Source: Eledone cirrhosa (taxonomy: Eukaryota). Taken from it: a stretch of DNA of 64,000 bases. The position numbers and the translations under genes are program-made. Numbering within the stretch: the stretch's first letter is position 1; each line of letters begins with the position of its first letter. Positions 3,656 to 57,089 of the stretch are shown here, piece by piece. The stretch covers positions 43,834,001 to 43,898,000 of the forward strand of contig OZ024748.1 of the NCBI GenBank assembly GCA_964016885.1. Reading direction: 5' to 3'. The notes under the pieces are model-generated. The model had not been told where the DNA came from, did no database searches, and saw only the letters and a program-made list of their open reading frames with translations.

Positions 3656-3889
3656 CTGCAGGACAGTCTTGAAGTTACATGGAGATGAAGAATCTTCATC
3701 TCCACCATCTTCATCTTTAACAATTCCTTCATCGTCAATTGTATGTGAGTCATCACTTTCAACATCTGTATCTGGGGTAGTCATATACTCAATAAGATAC
3801 TCCAGTTCAGAACTTAGACTACTTTCTTCAGTCTCCGTTAAACCATGGTCTAGCGCTTCGAATAATATCAAGCCAAGAATTTGAATCAC
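3656..3889 (-). CDS. SPIRE: Spire-like coding exon 3 (C-terminal part of KIND domain); gene continues left of the window
   Basis: ttttatttcag|GTG acceptor and CAG|GTAATC donor; 234 nt; VIQILGLILFEALDHGLTETEESSLSSELEYLIEYMT...DDEG resembles Spire VIESLG..IYKALDYGL.E.EERELSP.LEQLI..M...DEG. Confidence 0.88.
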
Positions 3890-6275: not shown

Positions 6276-6310
6276 ATCTTTGTCCTTGACTGTGTTCCCT
6301 TTATAAAAAT
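6276..6310 (-). CDS. SPIRE: Spire-like coding exon 2, 35-nt microexon (DFYKGNTVKDKD)
   Basis: Pyrimidine tract cctcttttattttttcag acceptor and GTAAGT donor; 35 nt converts phase 1 of exon 1 to the phase 0 needed by exon 3 with no stop. Not in the ORF track. Confidence 0.75.
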
Positions 6311-7315: not shown

Positions 7316-8250
7316 TCCTCCTAACCCCTCGTTTCATAAGCTTTCTATGGTTAGATGCCCTTCCTAAACCCTCGTTTCATAAGCTTTCTATGGCTGGATG
7401 CCCTCCCTAACCCCTCATTTCATAAGCTTTCTATGGCTAGATGCCCTCCCTAACCCCTCATTTCATAAGCTTTCTATGGCTGGATGCCCTCCCTAACCCC
7501 TCATTTCATAAGCTTTCTATGGCTGGATGCCCTCCCTAACCCCTCATTTCGCAAGCTTTCTATGGCTGGATGCCCTCCCTAACCCCTCATTTCGCAAGCT
7601 TTCTATGGCTGGATGCCCTCCCTAAACCCTCATTTCGCAAGCTTTCTATGGCTGGATGCCCTCCCTAACCCCTCATTTCGCAAGCTTTCTATGGCTGGAT
7701 GCCCTCCCTAAACCCTCATTTCGCAAGCTTTCTATGGCTGGATGCCCTCCCTAACCCCTCATTTCATAAGCTTTCTATGGCTGGATGCCCTCCCTAACCC
7801 CTCATTTCATAAGCTTTCTATGGCTGGATGCCCTCCCTAACCCCTCATTTCATAAGCTTTCTATGGCTGGATGCCCTCCCTAACCCCTCATTTCATAAGC
7901 TTTCTATGGCTGGATGCCCTCCCTAACCCCTTATTTCATAAGCTTTCTATGGCTGGATGCCCTCCCTAACCCCTCATTTCATAAGCTTTCTATGGCTGGA
8001 TGCCCTCCCTAACCCCTCATTTCATATGCTTTCTATGGCTGGATGCCCTCCCTAACCCCTCATTTCATAAGCTTTCTATGGCTGGATGCCCTCCCTAACC
8101 CCTCATTTCATAAGCTTTCTATGGCTGGATGCCCTCCCTAACCCCTTATTTCATAAGCTTTCTATGGCTGGATGCCCTCCCTAACCCCTCATTTCATATG
8201 CTTTCTATGGCTGGATGCCCTCCCTAACACCAACCACTTTACAGTGTGTA
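7316..8250. repeat. 43-bp minisatellite, about 21 copies, partly derived from the RTE 3' UTR
   Basis: CATAAGCTTTCTATGGCTGGATGCCCTCCCTAACCCCTCATTT; array runs out into CCTAACACCAACCAC.TTTACAGTG as in the RTE UTR. Confidence 0.92.
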
Positions 8251-8528: not shown

Positions 8529-8899
8529 GTGTATATATATACACACACAAATATATACATACACGCACAAGTTGTGTTAAATTCTAAGAGTATTTTTCTT
8601 TTCTGCTGCGAATAATACAGAAATTGCTTAAATAGTTGGAGAATCTGCTCTGAACTTGAATATGTATCTATAGAAACCTGCTTTTACACCACTTAATGTC
8701 TACTAGTTTACATATAGTAACACTTATTATTGCGTGAGCACCCACCCATCAAGAAACACACGCACACATACATACACACATTTTATATATACATACACAC
8801 ACAACTATATATATATGTAAATCCCGGGTTAAATCGGGGATAACCACAGTAAGTAAGGTACTCAATACATAGCAGAGTAAAAGTAATTTAATATAGAAA

Positions 8900-8952
8900 T
8901 GGCTTCTACAGGACTAGAACTGTTTCATTCGGAGGAAATCATCAGAAAGCCA
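8900..8952 (-). ncRNA. Type I hammerhead ribozyme-like motif on the Spire sense strand
   Basis: Minus strand UGGCUUU-CUGAUGA-U UUC cucc GAA U-GAA-ACAG uucuaguc CUGU-A-GAAGCCA: helix I of 7 bp, helix II, helix III of 4 bp, GUA cleavage triplet. Confidence 0.7.
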
Positions 8953-9347
8953 ACTATATATATAAAGAGAGGTGACAAACAACAGTACTGCTGGTAGAGA
9001 ATGTTTTCAGAACAGTTGTCCCTTTTCCCACCTTTTGTCATACATGTGTGTGCCATGAATTCTAAGTAAAAGACTGTTTTGACAGAGCACAGAGTCCATG
9101 TGACAGATGGACAAAAAGTCTATACGGTTATTAGAATATAAATTATAAACTTTCTTTTAACAGCTTTATCTTGATAAATGCTGTCATCTTAAAGTAGTTT
9201 TTCTGTCAGGAACTTCCAATTCCAATACTAATATACCATTACATCAGAAATAAAAACAGAAAACAGTAAAAAACAAACAAACCTTCCCAAGAGCCATTGC
9301 AACTTGTCATATTCAATTCTCATTAAAACCTAAACTAATTTCATACT

Positions 9348-14636: not shown

Positions 14637-15930
14637 CATCATCATCATCATCATCACCGTTTTACATCCGTTCTTCCACGCTAGCATGGGTTAGACGGGT
14701 TGTCCTGTTGTGGGCAGTGTCTGGTCGGCTGACCATGCCTTGCTCATACAGGAACTGATTTGGCTTGCTTTCTACAGCTGGATGCCCTTCCTAACACCAA
14801 CCTCATTTACAGTGAGTGCTGGGTGCTTTTTCGTGGCGCCTACACGTCCACTTTACAGTGTGGGCTGGGTGCTTTTTTTGCCGTGGCACCTCCACGACCA
14901 CCTTGCAGTAGGGGGGTGTGGGGGCATATTGTCTATATGCTTCAGCTTGTACCCATGGGAGGTCGGGTAGTCTGTATTACTGCTTGACGCGAGAGGTCAC
15001 GGTCGTGTGTCATCACCTTTGAGAGGTGTAATTGGGTAAGGTCGGCTTTTATCACCTCATCCCAGGTCATCTTGGGTCTCCCCACTCCGCGGTTTCCATC
15101 GACTTCTAGTGCTCTGCACCTTTTTATGCAGCTGTCATCCTTCATACGCATCACATGTCCATACCAGCGCAACCACCTCTCCTGCACACAGCATTTGATT
15201 CCTCTTATGCTCAGTCTCTCTCTCAATTCATTTATGCTTTGTCGTTCGCGTATATTACTGTTACACATCGATCGGAGCATGCAGGCTTCGTTTCTCTCTA
15301 ATCTACGTAAGTCTTCCACCTTCAGCGCAGGTCTCACTACCATGCAACATCGCTGTTCGGATACACACATCATACAGTCTGCCTTTCATTTTGAGGGAGA
15401 AGCCTTTTGCAGCTAGCAGTGGTAGTAGTTCCCTAAACTTCTTCCATCCCGTTCTTACCCTAGTTATTGTACTTTCTGAACACCCACCTCCGCTGCTAAT
15501 TCGGTCACCTAGGTAGCAGAAGCTGTCTTACTGTTTCTACAGGGCCCTCCCAGAGATTGGTGGTACTTGTTTCCTGTGGCTGTTTGCTGCTTGCTGTCCC
15601 AGCACAGCTGCTGCATGTGAAGCCTACATTCTTAATTAAGCTTCCTGAGATCCCGCTACATCTCTTGTGTACCCATTGTTTGCATTTGGGGCAGAGAATG
15701 GAGTTCCTACCTACACCTTTCCTACATACTGAGCAAGGCCATTTCCCTGAGGGGATCTGGGTTCTGTTTTCTCGTCTACTTACAAGGGCCTTAGTCTTTG
15801 TCATGTTGACTTTGAGACCCTTTCTTTCTAGTCCCTGCTTCCAAGTTTGGAATTTATTCTCTAGTTCTACCATAGATTCAGCTACAAGTGCGAGGTCATC
15901 AGCATACAGGAGTTGCCATGGGCATCCGTT
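14637..15930 (-). mobile_element. RTE LINE fragment (sister subfamily, frameshifted) inserted inside a piggyBac-like MITE
   Basis: GCPWQLLYADDL..., [17 protein letters not shown]..., RWYGHVMRM; (CAT)n tail at 14637. Confidence 0.9.
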
Positions 15931-16484
15931 AAATGTGTATGCTAAAGGGTTAAATAGGAAAATCTTTAGTCTAATACTGTAAATGTTTACAATTAACTGT
16001 AGTAAAGCTACTATAAACATTTGAATTAACAAAGCTGTTCTCAGATATTTTCTGTTAAATCATTACAGGATGATAAGAGTTATTTTCCTGGTTTTACAGA
16101 AGAAAATATTTATTTTTGATGGACAGCCACTGGAATCTGAGCAATTGATGGAGCAAACTGAGTGGATTTATTTATGATGAGAAGATAGGAGTCTAAATCA
16201 ATATATGGAATATTATAGAACTGTGTCTTACTAGACAAGTTGCTAGACTTGATTACTATATTGTTGTGTGGGTGGGTGTGTGAGCCTGAGAGAATGTGTG
16301 TATGTAAGCAGGAGAGAGAGAAAGAGAGAGAGAGAAAGATAAAGAGAAAGAGTGAGTGAGTGAGTGAGTGAGTGAGTGAGTGAGTGAGTGAGTGTGAGTG
16401 TGCGTATTAGCACTTTCCTATAAAAGACTGTCACCCTACTCATGCGCTATGTCATCAGCCAGATGGTCCCACTCGATAGGATGG

Positions 16485-21037: not shown

Positions 21038-21244
21038 ACACATGCGTGCTCACAAGTCTATCTTTAACATCCTATAATTATTTAGCAGAATATGTCTCAA
21101 AGTGAAGTCTGTTAATTCAAATGTTTATAATATCTTTACTAGTAGACAGATTGTTGTAAAAATTTGCTGTCTTAAAGACTTTAATTTTTAATGTGATGCA
21201 GTCATAATAGTTCTGTTTTGTAATTTTCAACAATGTCCTGTTAA

Positions 21245-24200
21245 CTCAGAGTACCAGTAATTCCTGGCACTGTTCTCCAAGTACCAGTAATTCCTGGAAC
21301 TGTTCTCAGAGTACCAGTAATTCCTGGCAGTGTTCTCCAAGTACCAGTAATTCCTGGCACTGTTGTCCGAGTACCAGTAATTCCTAGCACTGTTCTCCGA
21401 GTACCAGAAATTCCTGGCAGTGTTGTCCGAGTACCAGTAATTCCTGGCAGTGTTGTCCAAGTACCAGTAATTCCTGGCAGTGTTGTCCAAGTACCAGAAA
21501 TTCCTGGCAGTGTTGTCCAAGTACCAGTAATTCCTGGCAGTGTTGTCCAAGTACCAGTAATTCCTGGCAGTGTTGTCCAAGTACCAGAAATTCCTGGCAG
21601 TGTTGTCCAAGTACCAGAAATTCCTGGCAGTGTTGTCCGAGTACCAGTAATTCCTGGCAGTGTTGTCCGAGTACCAGTAATTCCTGGCACTGTTCTCCAA
21701 GTACCAGAAATTCCTGGCAGTGTTCTCCAAGTACCAGTAATTCCTGGCAGTGTTCTCCAAGTACCAGTAATTCCTGGCACTGTCCCGAGTACCAGTAATT
21801 CCTGGCAGTGTCCTGAGTACCAGTAATTCCTGGCAGTGTTGTCCGAGTACCAGTAATTCCTGGCAGTGTTGTCCGAGTACCAGTAATTCCTGGCAGTGTT
21901 GTCCGAGTACCAGTAATTCCTGGCACTGTTCTCCAAGTACCAGTAATTCCTGGCACTGTTCTCCAAGTACCAGTAATTCCTGGCACTGTTCTCCAAGTAC
22001 CAGTAATTCCTGGCACTGTTCTCCAAGTACCAGTAATTCCTGGCACTGTTGTCCAAGTACCAGTAATTCCTGGCAGTGTTGTCCAAGTACCAGTAATTCC
22101 TGGCAGTGTTGTCCAAGTACCAGTAATTCCTGGCAGTGTTGTCCAAGTACCAGTAATTCCTGGCAGTGTTCTCCAAGTACCAGTATTTCCTGGCAGTGTT
22201 GTCCAAGTACCAGTAATTCCTGGCAGTGTTGTCCAAGTACCAGTAATTCCTGGCAGTGTTGTCCAAGTACCAGTAATTCCTGGCAGTGTTCTCCAAGTAC
22301 CAGTAATTCCTGGCACTGTTCTCCAAGTACCAGTAATTCCTGGCAGTGTTCTCCAAGTACCAGTAATTCCTGGCACTGTTCTCCAAGTACCAGTAATTCC
22401 TGGCAGTGTTCTGAGCACCAGTAATTCCTGGCACTGTTCTCCAAGTACCAGTAATTCCTGGCAGTGTTGTCCGAGTACCAGTAATTCCTGGCACTGTCCT
22501 GAGTACCAGTAATTCCTGGCACTGTCCTGAGTACCAGTAATTCCTGGCAGTGTTCTCAGAGTACCAGTAATTCCTGGCAGTGTTCTCCAAGTACCAGTAA
22601 TTCCTGGGACTGTTCTCCAAGTACCAGTAATTCCTGGCACTGTTCGCCAAGTACCAGTAATTCCTGGCAGTGTTCTCCAAGTACCAGTAATTCCTGGCAC
22701 TGTTCTCCAAGTACCAGTAATTCCTGGCAGTGTTGTCCGAGTACCAGTAATTCCTGGCACTGTTCTCCAAGTACCAGTAATTCCTGGCAGTGTTCTCCAA
22801 GTACCAGTAATTCCTGGCAGTGTTCTCAGAGTACCAGTAATTCCTGGCAGTGTTCTCCAAGTACCAGTAATTCCTGGCAGTGTTGTCCAAGTACCAGTAA
22901 TTCCTGGCAGTGTTGTCCAAGTACCAGTAATTCCTGGCAGTGTTGTCCAAGTACCAGTAATTCCTGGCAGTGTTGTCCAAGTACCAGTAATTCCTGGCAG
23001 TGTTGTCCAAGTACCAGTAATTCCTGGCAGTGTTCTCCAAGTACCAGTAATTCCTGGCACTGTCCTGAGTACCAGTAATTCCTGGCAGTGTTCTCCGAGT
23101 ACCAGTAATTCCTGGCAGTGTTCTCCGAGTACCAGTAATTCCTGGCAGTGTTCTCGGAGAACACTGCCAGGAATTACTGGTACTTGGAGTACACTGCCAG
23201 GAATTACTGGTACTTGGACAACACTGCCAGGAATTACTGGTACTTGGACAACAGTGCCAGGAATTACTGGTACTCGGAGAACAGTGCCAGGAATTACTGG
23301 TACTTGGAGAACAGTGCCAGGAATTACTGGTACTTGGAGAACAGTGCCAGGAATTACTGGTACTCTGAGAACACTGCCAGGAATTACTGGTACTCAGGAC
23401 ACTGCCAGGAATTACTGGTACTCGGGACAGTGCCAGGAATTACTGGTACTTGGAGAACACTGCCAGGAATTACTGGTACTTGGAGAACACTGCCAGGAAT
23501 TTCTGGTACTTGGAGAACAGTGCCAGGAATTACTGGTACTTGGAGAACAGTGCCAGGAATTACTGGTACTCTGAGAACACTGCCAGGAATTACTGGTACT
23601 TGGAGAACAGTGCCAGGAATTACTGGTACTCTAAGTACCAGTAATTCCTGGCACTGTTCTCCAAGTACCAGTAATTCCTGGCACTGTTCTCCAAGTACCA
23701 GTAATTCCTGGCACTGTTCTCCAAGTACCAGTAATTCCTGGCACTGTCCTGAGTACCAGTAATTCCTGGCAGTGTTGACCGAGTACCAGTAATTCCTGGC
23801 ACTGTTCTCCGAGTACCAGTAATTCCTGGCACTGTTCTCCAAGTACCAGTAATTCCTGGCACTGTTCTCCAAGTACCAGTAATTCCTGGCACTGTCCTGA
23901 GTACCAGTAATTCCTGGCAGTGTTGACCGAGTACCAGTAATTCCTGGCACTGTTCTCCGAGTACCAGTAATTCCTGGCAGTGTTCTCCAAGTACCAGTAA
24001 TTCCTGGCAGTGTTGTCTGAGTACCAGTAATTCCTGGCACTGTTCTCCAAGTACCAGTAATTCCTGGCAGTGTTGTCCAAGTACCAGTAATTCCTGGCAC
24101 TGTTCTCCAAGTACCAGTAATTCCTGGCAGTGTTGTCCAAGTACCAGTAATTCCTGGCAGTGTTGTCCAAGTACCAGTAATTCCTGGCAGTGTTCTCCAA

Positions 24201-27200
24201 GTACCAGTAATTCCTGGCACTGTCCTGAGTACCAGTAATTCCTGGCAGTGTTCTCCAAGTACCAGTAATTCCTGGCAGTGTTGTCTGAGTACCAGTAATT
24301 CCTGGCAGTGTTGTCTGAGTACCAGTAATTCCTGGCAGTGTTGTCTGAGTACCAGTAATTCCTGGCAGTGTTGTCTGAGTACCAGTAATTCCTGGCAGTG
24401 TTGTCTGAGTACCAGTAATTCCTGGCAGTGTTCTCCAAGTACCAGTAATTCCTGGCAGTGTTGTCTGAGTACCAGTAATTCCTGGCAGTGTTGTCTGAGT
24501 ACCAGTAATTCCTGGCACTGTTCCCCAAGTACCAGTAATTCCTGGCACTGTTCTCCGAGTACCAGTAATTCCTGGCAGTGTTGTCTGAGTACCAGTAATT
24601 CCTGGCAGTGTTGTCTGAGTACCAGTAATTCCTGGCACTGTTCTCCAAGTACCAGTAATTCCTGGCAGTGTTCTCCAAGTACCAGTAATTCCTGGCACTG
24701 TTCTCCAAGTACCAGTAATTCCTGGCACTGTCCTGAGTACCAGTAATTCCTGGCACTGTTCTCCAAGTACCAGTAATTCCTGGCACTGTTCTCCGAGTAC
24801 CAGTAATTCCTGGCAGTGTTCTCCAAGTACCAGTAATTCCTGGCACTGTTCTCCAAGTACCAGTAATTCCTGGCAGTGTTCTCCAAGTACCAGTAATTCC
24901 TGGCAGTGTTCTCCAAGTACCAGTAATTCCTGGCACTGTCCTGAGTACCAGTAATTCCTGGCACTGTTCTCCAAGTACCAGTAATTCCTGGCACTGTTCT
25001 CCAAGTACCAGTAATTCCTGGCAGTGTTCTCCAAGTACCAGAAATTCCTGGCAGTGTTCTCCAAGTACCAGTAATTCCTGGCACTGTTCTCCAAGTACCA
25101 GTAATTCCTGGCACTGTTCTCCAAGTACCAGTAATTCCTGGCACTGTTCTCCAAGTACCAGTAATTCCTGGCACTGTTCTCCAAGTACCAGTAATTCCTG
25201 GCACTGTTCTCCAAGTACCAGTAATTCCTGGCAGTGTTCTCCAAGTACCAGAAATTCCTGGCAGTGTTCTCCAAGTACCAGTAATTCCTGGCACTGTTCT
25301 CCAAGTACCAGTAATTCCTGGCACTGTTCTCCAAGTACCAGTAATTCCTGGCAGTGTTCTCCAAGTACCAGTAATTCCTGGCAGTGTTGTCCGAGTACCA
25401 GTAATTCCTGGCAGTGTTGTCCAAGTACCAGTAATTCCTGGCACTGTTCTCCAAGTACCAGTAATTCCTGGCACTGTTCTCCAAGTACCAGTAATTCCTG
25501 GCACTGTTCTCCAAGTACCAGTAATTCCTGGCAGTGTTCTCCAAGTACCAGTAATTCCTGGCAGTGTTGTCCAAGTACCAGTAATTCCTGGCACTGTTCT
25601 CCAAGTACCAGTAATTCCTGGCACTGTTCTCCAAGTACCAGTAATTCCTGGCACTGTTCTCCAAGTACCAGTAATTCCTGGCAGTGTTGTCCAAGTACCA
25701 GTAATTCCTGGCAGTGTTCTGCAAGTACCAGTAATTCCTGGCACTGTTCTCCAAGTACCAGTAATTCCTGGCACTGTTCTCCAAGTACCAGTAATTCCTG
25801 GCACTGTCCTGAGTACCAGTAATTCCTGGCAGTGTTCTCCAAGTACCAGTAATTCCTGGCAGTGTTGTCGAAGTACCAGTAATTCCTGGCAGTGTTCTCC
25901 AAGTACCAGTAAGTCCTGGCACTGTCCTGAGTACCAGTAATTCCTGGCAGTGTTCTCCAAGTACCAGTAATTCCTAGCAGTGTTGTCCAAGTACCAGTAA
26001 TTCCTGGCAGTGTTCTCCAAGTACCAGTAATTCCTGGCAGTGTTCTCCAAGTACCAGTAAGTCCTGGCACTGTCCTGAGTACCAGTAATTCCTGGCACTG
26101 TCCTGAGTACCAGTAATTCCTGGCAGTGTTCTCCAAGTACCAGTAATTCCTGGCAGTGTTCTCCAAGTACCAGTAATTCCTGGCAGTGTTCTCAGAGTAC
26201 CAGTAATTCCTGGCACTGTTCTCCAAGTACCAGTAATTCCTGGCAGTGTTCTCCAAGTACCAGTAATTCCTGGCACTGTCCTGAGTACCAGTAATTCCTG
26301 GCAGTGTTGTCCAAGTACCAGTAATTCCTGGCACTGTTCTCCAAGTACCAGTAATTCCTGGCACTGTCCTGAGTACCAGTAATTCCTGGCACTGTTCTCC
26401 AAGTACCAGTAATTCCTGGCAGTGTTCTCCAAGTACCAGTAATTCCTGGCACTGTTCTCCAAGTACCAGAATTTCCTGGCAGTGTTCTCCAAGTACAAGT
26501 AATTCCTGGCAGTGTTCTCCAAGTACCAGTATTTCCTGGCAGTGTTGTCCAAGTACCAGTAATTCCTGGCACTGTTCTCCAAGTACCAGTAATTCCTGGC
26601 ACTGTCCTGAGTACCAGTAATTCCTGGCACTGTTCTCCAAGTACCAGTAATTCCTGGCAGTGTTCTCCAAGTACCAGTAATTCCTGGCACTGTTCTCCAA
26701 GTACCAGAATTTCCTGGCAGTGTTCTCCAAGTACAAGTAATTCCTGGCAGTGTTCTCCAAGTACCAGTAATTCCTGGCAGTGTTCTCCAAGTACCAGTAA
26801 TTCCTGGCACTGTCCTGAGTACCAGTAATTCCTGGCACTGTTCTCCAAGTACCAGTAATTCCTGGCAGTGTTCTCCAAGTACCAGTAATTCCTGGCAGTG
26901 TTCTCCAAGTACCAGTAATTCCTGGCAGTGTTCTCCAAGTACCAGTAATTCCTGGCACTGTTCTCCAAGTACCAGAATTTCCTGGCAGTGTTCTCCAAGT
27001 ACAAGTAATTCCTGGCAGTGTTCTCCAAGTACCAGTAATTCCTGGCAGTGTTCTCCAAGTACCAGTAATTCCTGGCACTGTCCTGAGTACCAGTAATTCC
27101 TGGCACTGTTCTCCAAGTACCAGTAATTCCTGGCAGTGTTCTCCAAGTACCAGTAATTCCTGGCAGTGTTCTCCAAGTACCAGTAATTCCTGGCAGTGTT

Positions 27201-30200
27201 CTCCAAGTACCAGTAATTCCTGGCAGTGTTCTCCAAGTACCAGTAATTCCTGGCAGTGTTCTCCAAGTACCAGTAATTCCTGGCACTGTTCTCCGAGTAC
27301 CAGTAATTCCTGGCAGTGTTCTCCAAGTACCAGTAATTCCTGGCAGTGTTCTCCAAGTACCAGTAATTCCTGGCAGTGTTCTCCAAGTACCAGTAATTCC
27401 TGGCAGTGTTGTCCGAGTACCAGAAATTCCTGGCAGTGTTCGAGTACCAGTAATTCCTGGCACTGTTCTCCAAGTACCAGTAATTCCTGGCACTGTTCTC
27501 CAAGTACCAGTAATTCCTGGCACTGTCCTGAGTACCAGTAATTCCTGGCACTGTTCTCCAAGTACCAGTAATTCCTGGCAGTGTTCTCCAAGTACCAGTA
27601 ATTCCTGGCACTGTTCTCCAAGTACCAGAATTTCCTGGCAGTGTTCTCCAAGTACAAGTAATTCCTGGCACTGTTCTCCAAGTACCAGTAATTCCTGGCA
27701 CTGTTCTCCAAGTACCAGTAATTCCTGGCACTGTCCTGAGTACCAGTAATTCCTGGCACTGTTCTCCAAGTACCAGTAATTCCTGGCAGTGTTCTCCAAG
27801 TACCAGTAATTCCTGGCACTGTTCTCCAAGTACCAGAATTTCCTGGCAGTGTTCTCCAAGTACAAGTAATTCCTGGCAGTGTTCTCCAAGTACCAGTAAT
27901 TCCTGGCAGTGTTCTCCAAGTACCAGTAATTCCTGGCACTGTCCTGAGTACCAGTAATTCCTGGCACTGTTCTCCAAGTACCAGTAATTCCTGGCAGTGT
28001 TCTCCAAGTACCAGTAATTCCTGGCAGTGTTGTCCAAGTACCAGTAATTCCTGGCACTGTTCTCCAAGTACCAGTAATTCCTGGCACTGTTCTCCAAGTA
28101 CCAGTAATTCCTGGCACTGTTCTCCAAGTACCAGTAATTCCTGGCAGTGTTGTCCAAGTACCAGTAATTCCTGGCAGTGTTGTCCAAGTACCAGTAATTC
28201 CTGGCAGTGTTCTGCAAGTACCAGTAATTCCTGGCACTGTTCTCCAAGTACCAGTAATTCCTGGCACTGTTCTCCAAGTACCAGTAATTCCTGGCACTGT
28301 CCTGAGTACCAGTAATTCCTGGCAGTGTTCTCCAAGTACCAGTAATTCCTGGCAGTGTTGTCCAAGTACCAGTAAGTCCTGGCACTGTCCTGAGTACCAG
28401 TAATTCCTGGCAGTGTTCTCCAAGTACCAGTAATTCCTAGCAGTGTTGTCCAAGTACCAGTAATTCCTGGCAGTGTTCTCCAAGTACCAGTAATTCCTAG
28501 CAGTGTTGTCCGAGTACCAGTAATTCCTGGCAGTGTTGTCCAAGTACCAGTAATTCCTGGCACTGTTCTCCAAGTACCAGTAATTCCTGGCAGTGTTCTC
28601 CAAGTACCAGTAATTCCTAGCAGTGTTGTCCAAGTACCAGTAATTCCTGGCACTGTTCTCCAAGTACCAGTAAGTCCTGGCACTGTCCTGAGTACCAGTA
28701 ATTCCTGGTAGTGTTCTCCAAGTACCAGTAATTCCTAGCAGTGTTGTCCAAGTACCAGTAATTCCTGGCAGTGTTCTCCAAGTACCAGTAATTCCTGGCA
28801 GTGTTCTCCAAGTACCAGTAAGTCCTGGCACTGTCCTGAGTACCAGTAATTCCTGGCACTGTCCTGAGTACCAGTAATTCCTGGCAGTGTTCTCCAAGTA
28901 CCAGTAATTCCTGGCAGTGTTCTCCAAGTACCAGTAATTCCTGGCACTGTCCTGAGTACCAGTAATTCCTGGCAGTGTTCTCAGAGTACCAGTAATTCCT
29001 GGCACTGTTCTCCAAGTACCAGTAATTCCTGGCACTGTTCTCCAAGTACCAGTAATTCCTGGCAGTGTTGTCTGAGTACCAGTAATTCCTGGCACTGTTC
29101 TCCAAGTACCAGTAATTCCTGGCAGTGTTGTCCGAGTACCAGTAATTCCTGGCACTGTTCTCCAAGTACCAGTAATTCCTGGCAGTGTTGTCTGAGTACC
29201 AGTAATTCCTGGCACTGTTCTCCAAGTACCAGTAATTCCTGGCAGTGTTGTCCAAGTACCAGTAATTCCTGGCACTGTTCTCCAAGTACCAGTAATTCCT
29301 GGCAGTGTTCTCCAAGTACCAGTAATTCCTGGCAGTGTTGTCTGAGTACCAGTAATTCCTGGCAGTGTTGTCTGAGTACCAGTAATTCCTGGCAGTGTTG
29401 TCTGAGTACCAGTAATTCCTGGCACTGTTCTCCAAGTACCAGTAATTCCTGGCACTGTTCTCCGAGTACCAGTAATTCCTGGCAGTGTTGTCTGAGTACC
29501 AGTAATTCCTGGCACTGTTCTCCAAGTACCAGTAATTCCTGGCACTGTTCTCCGAGTACCAGTAATTCCTGGCACTGTTCTCCAAGTACCAGTAATTCCT
29601 GGCACTGTTCTCCGAGTACCAGTAATTCCTGGCACTGTTCTCCGAGTACCAGTAATTCCTGGCAGTGTTCTCCGAGTACCAGTAATTCCTGGCAGTGTTC
29701 TCCGAGTACCAGTAATTCCTGGCAGTGTTCTCCGAGTACCAGTAATTCCTGGCACTGTCCTGAGTACCAGTAATTCCTGGCACTGTTCTCCAAGTACCAG
29801 TAATTCCTGGCAGTGTTCTCCGAGTACCAGTAATTCCTGGCAGTGTTCTCCGAGTACCAGTAATTCCTGGCAGTGTTCTCCGAGTACCAGTAATTCCTGG
29901 CAGTGTTCTCCAAGTACCAGTAATTCCTGGCACTGTCCTGAGTACCAGTAATTCCTGGCACTGTTCTCCAAGTACCAGTAATTCCTGGCAGTGTTCTCCG
30001 AGTACCAGTAATTCCTGGCAGTGTTCTCCGAGTACCAGTAATTCCTGGCAGTGTTCTCCGAGTACCAGTAATTCCTGGCAGTGTTCTCCGAGTACCAGTA
30101 ATTCCTGGCAGTGTTCTCCAAGTACCAGTAATTCCTGGCACTGTCCTGAGTACCAGTAATTCCTGGCACTGTTCTCCAAGTACCAGTAATTCCTGGCAGT

Positions 30201-33200
30201 GTTCTCCGAGTACCAGTAATTCCTGGCAGTGTTCTCCGAGTACCAGTAATTCCTGGCACTGTTCTCCAAGTACCAGTAATTCCTGGCACTGTTCTCCAAG
30301 TACCAGTAAGTCCTGGCACTGTCCTGAGTACCAGTAATTCCTGGCACTGTTCTCCAAGTACCAGTAATTCCTGGCAGTGTTCTCCAAGTACCAGTAATTC
30401 CTGGCAGTGTTCTCCAAGTACCAGTAATTCCTGGCACTGTCCTGAGTACCAGTAATTCCTGGCAGTGTTCTCCAAGTACCAGTAATTCCTGGCAGTGTTC
30501 TCCAAGTACCAGTAATTCCTGGCACTGTCCTGAGTACCAGTAATTCCTGGCAGTGTTCTCCAAGTACCAGTAATTCCTGGCAGTGTTCTCCAAGTACCAG
30601 TAATTCCTGGCACTGTCCTGAGTACCAGTAATTCCTGGCAGTGTTCTCCAAGTACCAGTAAGTCCTGGCACTGTCCTGAGTACCAGTAATTCCTGGCACT
30701 GTTCTCCAAGTACCAGTAATTCCTGGCAGTGTTCTCCAAGTACCAGTAATTCCTGGCAGTGTTCTCCAAGTACCAGTAATTCCTGGCACTGTCCTGAGTA
30801 CCAGTAATTCCTGGCAGTGTTCTCCAAGTACCAGTAATTCCTGGCAGTGTTCTCCAAGTACCAGTAATTCCTGGCACTGTCCTGAGTACCAGTAATTCCT
30901 GGCAGTGTTCTCCAAGTACCAGTAATTCCTGGCACTGTCCTGAGTACCAGTAATTCCTGGCAGTGTTCTCCAAGTACCAGTAATTCCTGGCAGTGTTCTC
31001 CAAGTACCAGTAATTCCTGGCACTGTCCTGAGTACCAGTAATTCCTGGCAGTGTTCTCCAAGTACCAGTAATTCCTGGCAGTGTTCTCCAAGTACCAGTA
31101 ATTCCTGGCACTGTCCTGAGTACCAGTAATTCCTGGCAGTGTTCTCCAAGTACCAGTAATTCCTGGCAGTGTTCTCCAAGTACCAGTAATTCCTGGCACT
31201 GTCCTGAGTACCAGTAATTCCTGGCAGTGTTCTCCAAGTACCAGTAATTCCTGGCAGTGTTCTCCAAGTACCAGTAATTCCTGGCACTGTCCTGAGTACC
31301 AGTAATTCCTGGCAGTGTTCTCCAAGTACCAGTAATTCCTGGCAGTGTTCTCCAAGTACCAGTAATTCCTGGCACTGTCCTGAGTACCAGTAATTCCTGG
31401 CAGTGTTCTCCAAGTACCAGTAATTCCTGGCAGTGTTCTCCAAGTACCAGTAATTCCTGGCAGTGTTCTCCAAGTACCAGTAATTCCTGGCACTGTCCTG
31501 AGTACCAGTAATTCCTGGCAGTGTTCTCCAAGTACCAGTAATTCCTGGCAGTGTTCTCCAAGTACCAGTAATTCCTGGCACTGTCCTGAGTACCAGTAAT
31601 TCCTGGCAGTGTTCTCCAAGTACCAGTAATTCCTGGCAGTGTTCTCCAAGTACCAGTAATTCCTGGCACTGTTCTCCAAGTACCAGTAATTCCTGGCAGT
31701 GTTCTCCAAGTACCAGTAATTCCTGGCAGTGTTCTCCAAGTACCAGTAATTCCTGGCAGTGTTCTCCAAGTACCAGTAATTCCTGGCACTGTCCTGAGTA
31801 CCAGTAATTCCTGGCACTGTTCTCCAAGTACCAGTAATTCCTGGCACTGTCCTGAGTACCAGTAATTCCTGGCAGTGTTCTCCAAGTACCAGTAATTCCT
31901 GGCAGTGTTCTCCAAGTACCAGTAATTCCTGGCACTGTCCTGAGTACCAGTAATTCCTGGCAGTGTTCTCCAAGTACCAGTAATTCCTGGCAGTGTTCTC
32001 CAAGTACCAGTAATTCCTGGCAGTGTTCTCCAAGTACCAGTAATTCCTGGCAGTGTTCTCCAAGTACCAGTAATTCCTGGCACTGTCCTGAGTACCAGTA
32101 ATTCCTGGCAGTGTTCTCCAAGTACCAGTAATTCCTGGCAGTGTTCTCCAAGTACCAGTAATTCCTGGCACTGTCCTGAGTACCAGTAATTCCTGGCAGT
32201 GTTCTCCAAGTACCAGTAATTCCTGGCAGTGTTCTCCAAGTACCAGTAATTCCTGGCACTGTCCTGAGTACCAGTAATTCCTGGCAGTGTTCTCCAAGTA
32301 CCAGTAATTCCTGGCAGTGTTCTCCAAGTACCAGTAATTCCTGGCACTGTCCTGAGTACCAGTAATTCCTGGCAGTGTTCTCCAAGTACCAGTAATTCCT
32401 GGCAGTGTTCTCCAAGTACCAGTAATTCCTGGCACTGTCCTGAGTACCAGTAATTCCTGGCAGTGTTCTCCAAGTACCAGTAAGTCCTGGCACTGTTCTC
32501 CAAGTACCAGTAATTCCTGGCAGTGTTCTCCAAGTACCAGTAATTCCTGGCAGTGTTCTCCAAGTACCAGTAATTCCTGGCACTGTCCTGAGTACCAGTA
32601 ATTCCTGGCAGTGTTCTCCAAGTACCAGTAATTCCTGGCACTGTCCTGAGTACCAGTAATTCCTGGCAGTGTTCTCCAAGTACCAGTAAGTCCTGGCACT
32701 GTCCTGAGTACCAGTAATTCCTGGCACTGTTCTCCAAGTACCAGTAATTCCTGGCAGTGTTCTCCAAGTACCAGTAATTCCTGGCACTGTCCTGAGTACC
32801 AGTAATTCCTGGCAGTGTTCTCCAAGTACCAGTAATTCCTGGCAGTGTTCTCCAAGTACCAGTAATTCCTGGCACTGTCCTGAGTACCAGTAATTCCTGG
32901 CACTGTTCTCCAAGTACCAGTAATTCCTGGCACTGTCCTGAGTACCAGTAATTCCTGGCACTGTTCTCCAAGTACCAGTAATTCCTGGCAGTGTTCTCCA
33001 AGTACCAGTAATTCCTGGCAGTGTTCTCCAAGTACCAGTAATTCCTGGCACTGTCCTGAGTACCAGTAATTCCTGGCAGTGTTCTCCAAGTACCAGTAAT
33101 TCCTGGCAGTGTTCTCCAAGTACCAGTAATTCCTGGCACTGTCCTGAGTACCAGTAATTCCTGGCAGTGTTCTCCAAGTACCAGTAATTCCTGGCAGTGT

Positions 33201-36200
33201 TCTCCAAGTACCAGTAATTCCTGGCACTGTCCTGAGTACCAGTAATTCCTGGCACTGTTCTCCAAGTACCAGTAATTCCTGGCAGTGTTCTCCAAGTACC
33301 AGTAATTCCTGGCACTGTCCTGAGTACCAGTAATTCCTGGCACTGTTCTCCAAGTACCAGTAATTCCTGGCAGTGTTCTCCAAGTACCAGTAATTCCTGG
33401 CAGTGTTCTCCAAGTACCAGTAATTCCTGGCACTGTCCTGAGTACCAGTAATTCCTGGCAGTGTTCTCCAAGTACCAGTAATTCCTGGCAGTGTTCTCCA
33501 AGTACCAGTAATTCCTGGCACTGTCCTGAGTACCAGTAATTCCTGGCACTGTTCTCCAAGTACCAGTAATTCCTGGCAGTGTTCTCCAAGTACCAGTAAT
33601 TCCTGGCACTGTCCTGAGTACCAGTAATTCCTGGCACTGTTCTCCAAGTACCAGTAATTCCTGGCAGTGTTCTCCAAGTACCAGTAAGTCCTGGCACTGT
33701 CCTGAGTACCAGTAATTCCTGGCACTGTTCTCCAAGTACCAGTAATTCCTGGCAGTGTTCTCCAAGTACCAGTAATTCCTGGCACTGTCCTGAGTACCAG
33801 TAATTCCTGGCACTGTTCTCCAAGTACCAGTAATTCCTGGCAGTGTTCTCCAAGTACCAGTAATTCCTGGCAGTGTTCTCCAAGTACCAGTAATTCCTGG
33901 CACTGTCCTGAGTACCAGTAATTCCTGGCAGTGTTCTCCAAGTACCAGTAATTCCTGGCACTGTCCTGAGTACCAGTAATTCCTGGCACTGTTCTCCAAG
34001 TACCAGTAATTCCTGGCAGTGTTCTCCAAGTACCAGTAATTCCTGGCACTGTCCTGAGTACCAGTAATTCCTGGCACTGTTCTCCAAGTACCAGTAATTC
34101 CTGGCAGTGTTCTCCAAGTACCAGTAAGTCCTGGCACTGTCCTGAGTACCAGTAATTCCTGGCACTGTTCTCCAAGTACCAGTAATTCCTGGCAGTGTTC
34201 TCCAAGTACCAGTAATTCCTGGCACTGTCCTGAGTACCAGTAATTCCTGGCAGTGTTCTCCAAGTACCAGTAATTCCTGGCACTGTCCTGAGTACCAGTA
34301 ATTCCTGGCAGTGTTCTCCAAGTACCAGTAATTCCTGGCAGTGTTCTCCAAGTACCAGTAATTCCTGGCAGTGTTCTCCAAGTACCAGTAATTCCTGGCA
34401 CTGTTCTCCAAGTACCAGTAATTCCTGGCAGTGTTCTCCAAGTACCAGTAATTCCTGGCACTGTCCTGAGTACCAGTAATTCCTGGCACTGTTCTCCAAG
34501 TACCAGTAATTCCTGGCAGTGTTCTCCAAGTACCAGAAATTCCTGGCAGTGTTGTCCGAGTACCAGTAATTCCTGGCAGTGTTCTCCAAGTACCAGTAAT
34601 TCCTGGCAGTGTTCTCCAAGTACCAGTAATTCCTGGCAGTGTTCTCCAAGTACCAGTAATTCCTGGCAGTGTTCTCCAAGTACCAGTAATTCCTGGCACT
34701 GTTCTCCAAGTACCAGAAATTCCTGGCAGTGTTGTCCGAGTACCAGTAATTCCTGGCACTGTTCTCCAAGTACCAGTAATTCCTGGCAGTGTTGTCCGAG
34801 TACCAGTAATTCCTGGCAGTGTTGTCCAAGTACCAGTAATTCCTGGCACTGTTCTCCAAGTACCAGTAATTCCTGGCAGTGATCTCCAAGTACCAGTAAT
34901 TCCTGGCAGTGTTGTCCAAGTACCAGTAATTCCTGGCACTGTTCTCCAAGTACCAGTAATTCCTGGCACTGTTCTCCAAGTACCAGTAATTCCTGGCAGT
35001 GTTCTCCAAGTACCAGTAATTCCTGGCAGTGTTCTCCAAGTACCAGTAATTCCTGGCACTGTCCTGAGTACCAGTAATTCCTGGCAGTGTTCTCCAAGTA
35101 CCAGTAATTCCTGGCAGTGTTCTCCAAGTACCAGTAATTCCTGGCAGTGTCCTGAGTACCAGTAATTCCTGGCAGTGTTCTCAGAGTACCAGTAATTCCT
35201 GGCAGTGTTCTCCAAGTACCAGTAATTCCTGGCAGTGTTGTCCGAGTACCAGTAATTCCTGGCACTGTTCTCCAAGTACCAGTAATTCCTGGCAGTGTTC
35301 TCCAAGTACCAGTAATTCCTAGCAGTGTTGTCCAAGTACCAGTAATTCCTGGCAGTGTTCTCCAAGTACCAGTAATTCCTGGCAGTGTTCTCCAAGTACC
35401 AGTAAGTCCTGGCACTGTCCTGAGTACCAGTAATTCCTGGCAGTGTTCTCCAAGTACCAGTAATTCCTGGCAGTGTTCTCCAAGTACCAGTAATTCCTGG
35501 CAGTGTTCTCCAAGTACCAGTAATTCCTGGCACTGTCCTGAGTACCAGTAATTCCTGGCAGTGTTCTCCAAGTACCAGTAATTCCTGGCAGTGTTCTCCA
35601 AGTACCAGTAATTCCTGGCACTGTCCTGAGTACCAGTAATTCCTGGCACTGTTCTCCAAGTACCAGTAATTCCTGGCACTGTCCTGAGTACCAGTAATTC
35701 CTGGCACTGTTCTCCAAGTACCAGTAATTCCTGGCAGTGTTCTCCAAGTACCAGTAATTCCTGGCACTGTTCTCCAAGTACCAGTAATTCCTGGCACTGT
35801 CCTGAGTACCAGTAATTCCTGGCACTGTTCTCCAAGTACCAGTAATTCCTGGCACTGTTCTCCAAGTACCAGTAATTCCTGGCAGTGTTCTCCAAGTACC
35901 AGTAATTCCTGGCAGTGTTCTCCAAGTACCAGTAATTCCTGGCACTGTCCTGAGTACCAGTAATTCCTGGCAGTGTTCTCCAAGTACCAGTAATTCCTGG
36001 CAGTGTTCTCCAAGTACCAGTAATTCCTGGCAGTGTCCTGAGTACCAGTAATTCCTGGCAGTGTTCTCAGAGTACCAGTAATTCCTGGCAGTGTTCTCCA
36101 AGTACCAGTAATTCCTGGCAGTGTTGTCCGAGTACCAGTAATTCCTGGCACTGTTCTCCAAGTACCAGTAATTCCTGGCAGTGTTCTCCAAGTACCAGTA

Positions 36201-36454
36201 ATTCCTAGCAGTGTTGTCCAAGTACCAGTAATTCCTGGCAGTGTTCTCCAAGTACCAGTAATTCCTGGCAGTGTTCTCCAAGTACCAGTAAGTCCTGGCA
36301 CTGTCCTGAGTACCAGTAATTCCTGGCAGTGTTCTCCAAGTACCAGTAATTCCTGGCAGTGTTCTCCAAGTACCAGTAATTCCTGGCACTGTCCTGAGTA
36401 CCAGTAATTCCTGGCAGTGTTCTCCAAATACCAGTAATTCCTGGCACTGTTCTC
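21245..36454. repeat. Large tandem satellite, 30-bp unit GTACCAGTAATTCCTGGCA(G/C)TGTT(C/G)TCCAA with 28-bp variant ...CACTGTCCTGA; roughly 510 units
   Basis: Directly visible periodicity; inverted block at 23157-23630. Confidence 0.98.
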
Positions 36455-36570
36455 TTCCACGATACACATTCACACCATCAATCTAACTCAACTTTCTTTT
36501 GAGACAACGATCATTGAAAGAGAAAAACAAAAAAAAATTAACCAAGAGGTGGAGGGTACAAGTTTGGACA

Positions 36571-38565: not shown

Positions 38566-38637
38566 AGAGAGAGAGAGAGAGACGACAGAGAGAGACAGAG
38601 AGAGAGAGTTTAGACAAAATAATAGTTAATCTTTGAC

Positions 38638-38837
38638 NNNNNNNNNNNNNNNNNNNNNNNNNNNNNNNNNNNNNNNNNNNNNNNNNNNNNNNNNNNNNNN
38701 NNNNNNNNNNNNNNNNNNNNNNNNNNNNNNNNNNNNNNNNNNNNNNNNNNNNNNNNNNNNNNNNNNNNNNNNNNNNNNNNNNNNNNNNNNNNNNNNNNNN
38801 NNNNNNNNNNNNNNNNNNNNNNNNNNNNNNNNNNNNN
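38638..38837. other. Assembly gap (200 N)
   Basis: Run of N. Confidence 1.
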
Positions 38838-39117
38838 AATTCATGAAATGTCCAAATGTCGATAGGGTTTTTTGAGTGGAGGGTGGGGTGTTTAAAAATG
38901 ATATCCCATGAAATTTGTTATAGCTTGTTTTCTAAGTCTTTAAACAGCTTAAGGTATTATTAAAGCTTAACTAGCAAGGGTCACTGTGGTTTTGTTTTTT
39001 TTGTTTGTGTTTTTTTGTTTGTATTTTCTGTCGTTTAGCAACACAGTTGTTTTCTTTGTAGAAAATTTGAACAGACATGTTTCAATTCAGTGTTCTGATC
39101 TGTTGAAGAAAACTAGT

Positions 39118-42892: not shown

Positions 42893-43260
42893 ACATCAAG
42901 TTTAATATAGAAATGGCTTCTACAAGACTAGAACTGTTTCATTCACCCCGAGACACGGACACACTTTATTTATTTATATATATATCTTGGTTATTTGGAA
43001 CAGTCAAATTTAAACATTGACCTTCTAGTAAATATATATCACAAATTGATACCAACTGATGCTATATAAACGAGGGTGGTGAGGAAATGGTGTCAAGGCT
43101 AAATATATTATGAAATAATTATGCCAGATAAATTAATTGGTCTGATGTCAATCTACAACAGAACATTGTACAAGGTATTTTGACACTATAATTCTTACAT
43201 TGCTAATCGTGTAATTGAAACAAAAATATTTGGTGTAACAACAGAAGATATAGTGATACT

Positions 43261-45696: not shown

Positions 45697-46118
45697 ACAC
45701 AGAGAGAGACTGACAGAGAGAGAGACTGACAGAAAGACAGAGAGAGACAAACCGGTTTGAATTAATAATAACGAAATATAATAATAACCATGTAAGAATA
45801 ATTATAGAGAGAGAAAGGAGAAAAGATGGTGCATTAAGAGAAACAGATATATGCGTGACAATATAATAATAATAGACTCGGAAATCTGTAGTATAGTTGA
45901 TATAATATATATATATATATATATATAAAAAGAATCAAGACCCCGACGGCTGAGCTCCGGCCGTTTCAACGGCTAGATCCAAACAGTTTGGATCTAGCTG
46001 GCGGGGGGTCCTGATTCTTTTCATATTAGCCACTCTACTACCCCAAGTATCGAGTACTGTGGTGGGTTATGGGCCATCTGGTATATACAATATACATAGA
46101 GTATATACAATATAGAAA

Positions 46119-46166
46119 TGGCTCCTACAGGGCTAGAACTGTTTCATTCGAAGGAAATCATCAGGA
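46119..46166 (-). ncRNA. Hammerhead-like motif of the 8900 family; 5' arm of helix I disrupted by a fold-back inversion
   Basis: Minus strand CUGAUGA uuuccuucgaau GAAACAG uucuagcc CUGUA GGAGCC; partial copies at about 42906-42944 and 46644-46671. Confidence 0.55.
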
Positions 46167-46579
46167 TGATTTCCAACAGTTCTAATCCTGTAGAAGTCAT
46201 TTCTATATTTTATATATATATAAAATATAGAAATATATATATATATATATATCCACCCCCACCCACCCCACCCCCATTCTCAAGCGTGAAACTAATAATA
46301 ATTGTTTCTACTTTGGCACAAGGCCAGCACATTATTGGTACTTTATTTTATCGACCCCGTAAGGATGAAAGGTATCGACCCCTAATAGACATTTGTACTG
46401 CCTCTTCGTTTTTCTGTTCTCCGTTTACTTTATATATATATAAGTCCAGAAATAGCCGTCGAAACGGCTTGAGCTCTGCCGTTGGGGTCATACTTTTTCC
46501 TATTTCCCACTCTACCACCCTAAGTATTGAGTACTCTGGTGCGTTATGGTCCATCTGGTTCCTTACCACAATTCCTTTG

Positions 46580-46635
<56 letters not shown>

Positions 46636-46731
46636 ATATAGAGAGAAATGGCTTCTACAAGACTAGAACTGTAATATATTCATTTTATTAAGGTTAAATA
46701 GCGAGTCTTGTTACTCTAAAGTAACAAGTTC

Positions 46732-51142: not shown

Positions 51143-51461
51143 CATTTTCTGAGATATGTGTTCGTGTAGTATTAATATCCACTTTTTTTCTCTTAGTCTC
51201 AGGAGTTTTAATTACAACTTCTCCGTCTCTTTGAATGTGAATTCCTTCTAAACGATGTTTTAGCAAAATCCGATAACCGTGCTTCTTTGATTTAACGTTT
51301 AAAAAATATTTCGTACATTGGTGACATATTGCCCAAGCCTGTTCTTCACTGACAGAGCTTGTGAATATTCTTAAAACTCTTGCCAGAGATATATGGTTGT
51401 TTTTATCATTTTTCGAGCTTGGTTCATCGTCGGTGCTGTCGTCGGAACAGTTTGCTGCCAT
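51143..51461 (-). CDS. SPIRE: Spire-like actin nucleation factor, first coding exon (N-terminal half of KIND domain)
   Basis: ATG at 51461 in context GTCATGG; translation ISLARVLRIFTSSVSEEQAWAICHQC...IHIQRDGEV resembles the Spire KIND motif (LSLEEIL...EEQAWAVCYQC...RDG); donor AATG|GTAATC at 51142; 319 nt, phase 1. Confidence 0.88.
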
Positions 51462-55207: not shown

Positions 55208-55559
55208 ATTAAATAATTGTTTCTACTTTAGGCACAAGGCCAGCAATTACCCAGTGCATTACTAGTACTTTATTTTATCGACCCCGTAAGGATGAAAGGC
55301 AAAGTCAACCTCGGCGGGATTTGAACTCATTATTTGAATATTAAATAATGATATATATGTGTGTGAATATATATATATATACATACATATATGTGTGTGA
55401 ATATATACATATATACATACATATATGTGTGTGAATATATACATATATACATACATATATGTGTATATATATACATACATATATGTGTATATATATACAT
55501 ATATACATACATATATGTGTATATATATACATATATATATATGGATACATATATGAATG

Positions 55560-55590
<31 letters not shown>

Positions 55591-55669
55591 ACATATATAT
55601 ATATATATATGTATACATATATATATATGTATACATATATATATTATTATATGTATACATATATACATT

Positions 55670-57089
55670 ATTATTATTGCCCTTCAGGCTATAACAGAGG
55701 AGTTCAAGACAGGCTGCCCATGGGAACTCCTATACGCAGACGACCTGACACTCATAGCGGAATCAATGGCCGAGCTAGAGAAGAAATTCCAAACATGGAA
55801 GCACGGCCTAGAGTCAAAAGGACTTAAAATTAACCTGGCTAAGACCAAAGTTCTAGTTTGTAGGAAAGAAAATAAGGCGGCGATCCCTTCTGGGAAATGG
55901 TCGTGCTCGGTGTGTAGGAAAGGCGTAGGTAGAAACTCCATTTTATGTCCTAAATGCAAAGTATGGGTGCATAAAAGATGTAGTGGGATCACAGGTAAGC
56001 TAACTAAAAACATAGATTTTACATGTGGCCGGTGTTCTGGTGCAATAAGTAGCAGCAAGTGCCCACAAAATACTAGCTCTTTCAATTGCGCAGAGGGTTC
56101 TATAGAAATAGTGGACAGCTTCCGTTACCTGGGCGATAAAATCAGCAGTGGGGGAGGGTGCTCTGAAAGTACTGTAGCTAGAGTCAGAACTGGTTGGAAA
56201 AAGTTCAGAGAGCTTATACCACTATTAGCTGCTAAAGGGTTCTCCCTAAAAATGAAAGGCAGGTTGTACGATGCCTGCATACGAACAGCAATGCTGCATG
56301 GCAGTGAGACCTGGGCATTGTGTGCAGAGGATATACGCAGACTAGAGAGGAACGAAGCTTGCATGCTCCGCTGGATGTGTAACAGTAATATACGTGAACG
56401 GCAAAGCATAAACGAACTAAGGAAAAAATTAGAGATAAGAGGGATCAGATGTTGTTTACTCGAGAGAAGGCTACGTTGGTATGGACACGTGATGCGCATG
56501 AAAGTCGATAGCTGTATAACAAAGTGCAGGGCAATAAAGATAGACGGTAGTCACGGAATAGGCAGACCTAGAAAAACCTGGGACGAGCTGATAAACTCCG
56601 ACATCACACACTTACACCTCTCCAAGACAATGTCACTGGACCGAGACCTTTGGCGGTACTCAGTAACAGAGAAGACCCGCCTTACCTAAATATATAGTAA
56701 AACCTACTCCAGCCAGTAGGCATCTCTAACAAAATACACCCCGTCCCACCACCACCACCCCCACTCCATCCACACCACCCCGTTCTATGTAAAGTTATGT
56801 TGGTGCCGCGCCATCGAGGCCGAAACAAATGAGATCGTGTAGGTGTCACGACAAAAAAACACACAGTCCACGCTGTAATGTGGCCGTGTAGGCAACACGG
56901 TAAAAACCTCCCAGACCCACACTGTAAATGTGGTTGGTGTTAGGAAGGGCATCCAACTGTAGAAAACCTGCCAGACAGTCCTATGCGAGCAAGATAATCA
57001 CTCTTGCCTCAAGTGGGACTACCCCCGTCCAAACCCATGCAAGTGTGGAACACGGACGTTAAACGTTGATGATGATGATGATGATGATG
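55670..57089 (+). mobile_element. 5'-truncated RTE-clade LINE: RT C-terminus (YADD), PHD-like Cys/His finger, C-terminal domain, 3' UTR and (GAT)n tail
   Basis: Open frame [12 protein letters not shown]...FRYLG...YGHVMRM...GRPRKTW to stop at 56689; tail GATGATGAT. Confidence 0.92.

Follow-up and report, generated by a model that had tools for sequence, protein, structure and literature searches.

A hammerhead-bearing insert in Spire intron 1 of Eledone cirrhosa and its relation to short pLTR copies of Hydra-clade Penelope-like elements

The closest described relatives of the repeat analysed here are the C-terminal EN+ Penelope-like elements (PLEs) of the Hydra clade (Hydra-1_Amil, Hydra-1_Ajap, Hydra-1_Obim and Penelope-1_HM; PMC8557442). 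The family in Eledone cirrhosa has in common with them a single ORF of about 710 aa that joins a reverse transcriptase (RT) to a C-terminal GIY-YIG domain, the DKT motif, the CxCx5C linker and (TA)n targets, together with a pLTR whose type I hammerhead takes the CUGAUGAU...UGAAAC...GUH form, 5'-short copies in inverted orientation and an optional tail. Earlier publications already describe PLE pLTRs with hammerheads, short copies in inverted orientation, tails and (TA)n targets, and what the hammerhead does and how the short inverted copies arise stand as open questions in PMC8557442 and PMC11167929. The latter study describes Poseidon_Ac of Anolis (PAc; Frangieh et al. 2024), which resembles the present family in having two internal RT starts that define the tail, AT-rich targets, priming of both strands, integration of uncut RNA and no ends at the hammerhead cut. 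The RT starts inferred here lie upstream of the ATG and have a target-matching TATAT, whereas those of PAc lie inside the ORF and are not target-homologous; moreover, the hammerhead here lies wholly in the 5' leader, unlike that of PAc, which is described as needing protein.

Other relatives are the non-LTR retrozymes of animals (Cervera and de la Pena 2020, PMC7229834; Li et al. 2026 preprint), which share with the insert a non-coding nature, a type I hammerhead and kinship with PLE pLTRs; the axolotl hammerhead HHR_Amex2 has the same U-U at the base of helix II. Retrozymes are, however, described there as head-to-tail tandems of 150-450 bp units, each with a hammerhead, which the insert family is not (1 of 84 copies), and the copies here do not start at the cleavage site as retrozymes do. 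The CPEB3 HDV-like ribozyme is likewise a sense-strand motif in an intron upstream of an exon, but it is an old conserved single locus, whereas the insert is one young copy among thousands without a sign of selection. Amniote intronic hammerheads are host-domesticated, old and conserved single loci.

Here we analyse a stretch of 64,000 nt from E. cirrhosa (GCA_964016885.1, contig OZ024748.1, forward strand positions 43,834,001 to 43,898,000), called the window throughout, in which a hammerhead-bearing insert lies in intron 1 of Spire. We consider it likely that this insert is a young non-coding pLTR copy of a Hydra-clade PLE, that it arose as a run-off of uncut capped RNA at a (TA)n nick, and that it is a neutral passenger of the intron. 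Craig et al. (PMC8557442) do not list its family, and a recent octopus repeat annotation mentions neither hammerheads nor the Hydra clade in the part available (PMC13282606). A search of openly accessible articles found no published account that ties short PLE copies to a TATA-defined capped start.

The insert and its hammerhead

Element positions are counted from +1 at 8950 on the minus strand, which is the Spire sense strand, and the insert (8816-8950, 135 bp) reads from +135 to +1. The original prediction described it as a small non-coding insertion between target-site duplications, and the two 14-mers are indeed identical, at the element 3' end (8802-8815) and at its 5' end (8951-8964), with 135 bp between them. 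The 14-mer consists of (TA)5 and four unique letters. Since (TA)5 makes up 10 of the 14 letters and the 14-mer recurs a third time at 197-210, the last four letters alone are informative. Placing the 5' end at 0/+1, its commonest value in the family, makes the flanks a 14-bp duplication of a (TA)5-containing site, such as would follow if the TA run were nicked at its start and again 14 nt further along; base 8951 also matches element position 0, the putative transcription start. Alternatively, the last five letters of the 5' repeat could be element bases -4 to 0 with one CpG change, as this repeat agrees with the element's own upstream bases at four of five positions. That reading needs a rarer 5' end (2 of 84 copies in -8 to -1) and, in addition, a four-letter coincidence on the 3' side. 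Among the other copies, 84 with an exact tail were surveyed, 13 were dropped as extending to the end of the reference, and a flanking repeat with non-microsatellite letters was found in just 1 of the 71 tested, a scarcity expected for insertions in microsatellites (PMC8557442). Because of this single positive and the match of the 5' repeat to the element at four of five positions, we regard the duplication as a probable rather than a proven target-site duplication. The insert equals the column majority across +6 to +99, and its one departure from typical copies, at +130, leaves it 0.7% from the family type; on these sequence grounds the copy is young.

The minus strand had been predicted to carry a complete type I hammerhead, and CUGAUGA, GAAA, three helices and GUA are all present there (8900-8952). 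Helix I (8952-8946/8906-8900) has 7 bp including one U-G and is followed by the CUGAUGA box (8945-8939), a U-U (8938/8927) at the base of helix II, helix II itself (8937-8935/8930-8928, 3 bp with a 4-nt loop), the GAAA box (8926-8923), helix III (8923-8920/8911-8908, 3 bp plus A15.1-U16.1, with an 8-nt loop containing a palindromic CUAG) and the GUA triplet, which ends at 8907; the fold predicts cleavage between 8907 and 8906. The core positions C3-U4-G5-A6-N7-G8-A9, G12-A13-A14, A15.1-U16.1 and H17 are all found at 8945-8907. In place of a G10.1-C11.1 pair and a stable helix II there are the U-U mismatch and 3 bp; U-U is usual in Hydra-clade hammerheads (PMC8557442 File S2), and the CUGAUGAU...UGAAAC form is that of the Hydra elements in the same file. 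Loop III, with its 8 nt and CUAG palindrome, compares with 1-3 nt in the listed Hydra families, helix II here is only 3 bp, and the Hydra-1_Obim hammerhead differs from that of the insert in all stems.

The Rfam hammerhead models, proposed at the outset as a test of the motif, gave no match at gathering score and only chance miRNA matches at E<=10; since published Hydra hammerheads share the form, we attribute this absence to the limits of the models and to a weak fold. The hammerhead fold lies 0.8 kcal/mol above the minimum free energy (MFE) and hence is not the MFE structure, and unconstrained folding is no better than that of shuffles (z about 0) and lends no support by itself. Computed pairing in the nascent context is highly probable for helix I. 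Pair probabilities are about 0.1 for helix II and about 0.2 for helix III, also in the nascent context, and lower in the cold. Two copies co-fold to a double hammerhead through the CUAG palindrome at -27.0 kcal/mol, and in such models the ribozyme looks dimer-type. In a sister subfamily (L050, L051 and L052) loop III can be a longer perfect palindrome, ACTAGT, which fits a dimer interface.

A descriptor search of the window returned four complete hammerhead folds, compared with an average of 0.02 over 100 shuffles, and three of the four complete folds in Spire intron 1 are antisense to Spire, too small a number to indicate a strand bias. These three (at 11398, 42060 and 48162, all on the plus strand) belong to other repeat families, and near-cores lie at 42385 and 46737 (+) in the same intron.

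Whether family members keep the fold was addressed with 20 hand-chosen copies, in which 93.8% of the cells of the three helices are paired. Covariation, another of the proposed checks, was found in helix I, where two pairs show two-sided change across subfamilies (score 0.116, reached in 8 of 500 shuffles); therefore the fold is kept in master elements. Helices II and III are uninformative for covariation because they are nearly invariant, and they were partly set by the search pattern.

The parent element and its copies

In the 3.0-Gb genome, all 40 scored candidates match the 135 bp at 97-100%, and many copies run on upstream through a common non-coding stretch, the 3' UTR. Because longer copies extend in this way, the window copy is a 5'-short piece. 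At one locus (L011) the 135 bp lead straight into the start of an ORF, and at another (L031) a near-whole but frameshifted ORF is present, which gave 44 matches when used as a genome query. The 135 bp stand directly 5' of the ORF at L036 and L040/L246 (96%) and in the sister copies L051, L052 and L054, and 3' of the ORF at L245, L246 and L248, L246 being a complete pLTR-ORF-UTR-pLTR unit. The ATG of the ORF lies 47 nt past +135 in full-length copies. No intact ORF of the insert's exact subfamily was found among 20 loci read; an intact frame of 713 aa occurs in a sister subfamily at 80% DNA identity (L053), where this Hydra-type ORF (L053:1521-3659, G000 C1) has a pLTR before it.

The ORF encodes DKT (PSDKT), RWR (IRWRSFF), YRDD and TYIGMT motifs, a CxCx5C linker (CNCHDKAAC / CNCPDKTTC) as well as a GIY-YIG domain at the C terminus with CxxC and CxH beside a conserved E/N (CDLC...E...N...CMH); CCHH is absent as judged by eye. 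The Hydra clade is defined by DKT, RWK, CxCx5C, C-terminal GIY-YIG and CxxC/CxH motifs (PMC8557442 section 11), and RWR is a conservative variant of its RWK. Pfam support for RT and EN is weak, with a GIY-YIG match at E=0.019, below the cut-off, and none on the L053 protein. At least 1,421 homologues of the L053 protein were found at E<=1e-20 among 8,000 scored, nearly all of them unnamed, the best being labelled as from a bivalve. The clade assignment was made by motifs and by by-eye comparison with published Hydra proteins. The structure is also that of a PLE, with a partial-tandem pLTR, an inverted arm in 37 of 84 copies and two 3' ends about 70 nt apart, and (TA)>=3 stands at the 3' end of 74 of the 84 exact-tail copies. 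The units consist of a 2.1-kb ORF and 1.1 to over 4 kb of 3' UTR/pLTR and exceed 3 kb because of the microsatellite-rich 3' UTR, unlike the Hydra clade with its soft limit of generally <3 kb; the tail is about 70 nt here against 30-40 in Hydra families, and RWR replaces RWK. Taking motifs and structure together, the sequence identifies the insert as the pLTR end of a Hydra-clade PLE, a short end-piece. What had been called a tiny ribozyme-bearing retroelement family is thus a retrotransposed hammerhead repeat tied to PLEs, as proposed, but not a family of its own, being the pLTR of an ORF-bearing PLE with variable 5' junctions.

Two hammerheads in every 3' UTR, as L031 had suggested, were rejected when the upstream one proved absent from the other nine loci read. 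At L031:4134-4194 (-) and in L104, a short copy of a second subfamily, with its own TATA box and a compensated helix I, lies inside the 3' UTR.

A genome-wide copy-number check, again among those first proposed, showed both catalytic boxes and the helix III pattern at 5,495 places, among which loop II differs between subfamilies. An exact 32-mer from the core has 286 genome matches and an exact 26-mer from the tail has 85 including the window copy, the reversed control giving 0 in each case. The count of 286 is too high, since roughly a third of 30 loci read represent a single short copy within another repeat. Nine such loci (L061, L064, L065, L067, L071, L072, L074, L075 and L076) on contig C1 carry one and the same short PLE copy, flanked identically on either side, and by its sequence this recurrent copy is a passenger within another amplified repeat. 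In 55 ungapped copies, core positions +25-28 and +43 have 6 changes in 275, against 51 in 2,695 after the ribozyme; judged by these rates, core bases drift like the rest after insertion. The core-versus-flank rate over +6 to +12 was set aside as confounded by 5' junctions.

Within the window, family fragments had been placed at about 42906, 46110-46208 and 46644, and they were recovered at 42901-42944 (-, element +64 to +21, without CUGAUGA), 46109-46209 and 46644-46672 (-, element +56 to +28). The second belongs to a sister subfamily and is a fold-back pair of short arms, comprising a minus-strand arm at 46109-46164 (+61 to +6), in which both core boxes are present and the helix I 5' strand is absent, and an inverted arm with an internal deletion at 46175-46209. 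None of these three fragments contains a complete ribozyme.

Ends of the short copies

All 84 other exact-tail copies, picked regardless of the ribozyme, were surveyed for their ends, a few 5' ends being off by some bases where the aligner entered an inverted arm. The 5' ends lie beyond -40 in 22 copies (11 of them running to the end of the reference), in -40 to -9 in 6, in -8 to +20 in 37, in +21 to +44 in 4 and in +51 to +100 in 15. The 37 include 15 at 0/+1, the first two bases of helix I, and 2 in -8 to -1, a pile that is sharp and one-sided at the first base of helix I; a small second cluster at -33 to -36 (5/84) falls on a TATA box. At the cleavage site (+45 to +50) there are 0 of 84 5' ends, with 1.2 expected if ends were uniform.

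These junctions bear on the possibility that the 135 bp form an independent non-autonomous family or a retrozyme that amplifies through ribozyme-cut or circular RNA. There are hundreds of near-identical short copies (286 with the exact core and 85 with the exact tail), and PLE pLTRs have been proposed as the source of animal retrozymes (bioRxiv 10.64898/2026.07.22.740005). Against this, two direct hammerheads within 600 nt occur in only 1 of 84 copies, no 5' end falls at the cleavage site, junctions vary between copies, and ORF-bearing copies have the identical sequence as their pLTR. The junction data largely refute such a family, and we rate it very improbable.

The copies have two fixed 3' ends. 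An inverted short arm is present in 37 of 84 copies, and 34 of the 37 arms end at +56 to +67; in the insert the corresponding TATAT-containing site (element +56 to +65, minus strand) is at 8886-8895 and is a candidate for the first RT start. The second putative RT start is the element 3' end (+135), which in ORF-linked copies is followed by TATAT (8816-8820, minus strand, in the insert), and both fixed 3' ends are thus at TATAT.

Upstream of the 5' pile, a TATA box, TATAAATA, stands at -30 to -23 relative to G0, and in at least four loop-II subfamilies with differing spacers a TATA-like box stands at a distance of 28-30 nt from helix I, although this spacing is not an unbiased test because the search was restricted to 25-40 nt upstream. 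The D. virilis Penelope promoter, by comparison, is described as internal and TATA-less in PMC2377424. Among 90 copies genome-wide that are exact from G0, position -1 holds the template C in 50 cases, T in 8, G in 25 and A in 7, and the excess of G over A is significant (p=0.002). When G(-1) loci were read individually, 15 of 23 fitted the base of an inverted arm, and at 8 of 23 (7 junctions) the G was explained by neither arm nor target; at three junctions (L187, L191/192 and L195) the extra G is on both arms. In L1 insertions, capped 5' ends are marked by an additional G (PMC11702581). Given the TATA box 30 nt upstream and the extra Gs at junctions, the short copies are likely run-off cDNAs of a capped 5' end, and we infer that G0 is the start of the capped transcript.

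A competing explanation keeps the same short PLE end-piece and ascribes the 5' pile-up to joining by fold-back or microhomology at short palindromes next to the ribozyme, or to an RT pause. It would account for the many head-to-head junctions that are perfect palindromes around helix I bases, for the 15 of 23 G(-1) loci readable as inverted-arm base, and for the cluster at -33 to -36 (5/84) on a TATA box that resembles the (TA)n target. It does not readily account for the one-sided edge at 0 (2 of 84 in -8 to -1 against 15 at 0/+1), nor for copies without an inverted arm that also start at 0 to +9 (L099, L123, L130, L153, L157 and L168), nor for the extra G on both arms at the three junctions named above, nor for the constancy of TATA spacing among subfamilies. 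We consider this explanation improbable.

Under the preferred run-off reading, a TATA promoter would set the transcription start at position 0 (G0), and GIY-YIG nicking of (TA)n followed by TATAT pairing would prime RT at +135 or at +60-65. RT would thereby start in the leader of the uncut RNA and run off at its capped 5' terminus; the duplication would come from a second nick at a distance of 14 nt. With both strands primed, two run-off cDNAs would join head to head, and with one strand primed a solo copy such as the window insert would result. The short copies would not move again, because they are without the TATA box and without the RNA downstream of the RT start. For another PLE, internal RT starts, an uncut RNA substrate and a protein-assisted hammerhead have been shown in vitro (PMC11167929). 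A fuller model, which we offer tentatively and to which we give somewhat less than even weight, is that the TATA box starts a capped RNA at the first hammerhead base and that a dimeric RT-endonuclease primes both strands at the two leader TATAT sites and runs off the cap, which would yield thousands of 60-135-bp single or head-to-head copies; the ribozyme in the first 50 nt would then be a self-decapping off-switch and not a template processor.

The insert in the Spire gene

The window contains Spire coding exon 1 (51143-51461, minus strand), the start of the KIND domain (KIND model 1-71), the 35-nt exon 2 (6276-6310, minus strand, AG/GT, phase 1 to phase 0) and exon 3 (3704-3889, minus strand, part translated, KIND model 82-140). 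Exon 2 is needed for the frame because there are 0 stops with it and 11 without it. Pfam gave no match on one downstream Spire exon. Intron 1 is 44,832 nt long, and the insert, which had been placed about 2.6 kb upstream of the microexon on the Spire sense strand, does lie there, with its predicted cut 2,596 nt before exon 2 (3' splice site). A minisatellite of about 40-bp units occupies about 7340-8230 between the insert and exon 2; elsewhere in the intron there are a 15-kb tandem satellite with a short unit and very long stop-free frames (about 21200-36500) and a run of N (about 38600-38850, X in translation), either an assembly gap or withheld bases. Fragments resembling the RT domains of other non-LTR retrotransposons lie at 15505-16059 (-), 55367-56689 (+) and 53267-55096 (-), which by their motifs we take to be RTE-like and CR1-like.

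The original prediction went on to suggest that the insert could self-cleave the Spire pre-mRNA 2.6 kb before exon 2, and such cleavage might tune splicing or output. In its favour, the sense strand carries an intact core, helix I is highly probable in the nascent context, and the helix I covariation (two two-sided pairs) suggests that masters keep a working fold. From the literature, CPEB3 offers a precedent for an intronic ribozyme timed to the next exon, and Xenopus retrozymes are under-represented in introns (bioRxiv 10.64898/2026.07.22.740005). These points are outweighed by helix II and helix III probabilities of about 0.1 and about 0.2 and by the U-U at the base of helix II, the axolotl analogue of which cleaves 22% as a monomer in an hour (PMC7229834). 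PLE hammerheads are moreover slow and dimer- or protein-dependent according to PMC4209133 and PMC11167929, the former proposing a double hammerhead arrangement for PLE hammerheads that are slow in vitro. A lone hammerhead would cut slowly or never without a second copy or an element protein, and the only other sense-strand core in intron 1 (46164) is without the helix I 5' strand and 37 kb away. Transcription of 2.6 kb takes minutes. The copy, at 0.7% from the family type, bears no sign of adaptation, and given 5,495 copies in the genome, chance alone would place a sense copy in about 4% of introns of such length. We therefore hold a regulatory role in Spire to be highly unlikely, and the insert is most likely neutral at this gene.

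For Spire, then, the insert most likely has no consequence, and it serves as a warning that sense-strand intronic hammerheads arise by chance in large numbers in such genomes. For the element, the young high-copy family gives a base-exact prediction of a start site and of two RT starts, based on 5' ends that stop at a TATA-defined position, on cap-like extra Gs and on a cleavage site at which ends do not pile up.
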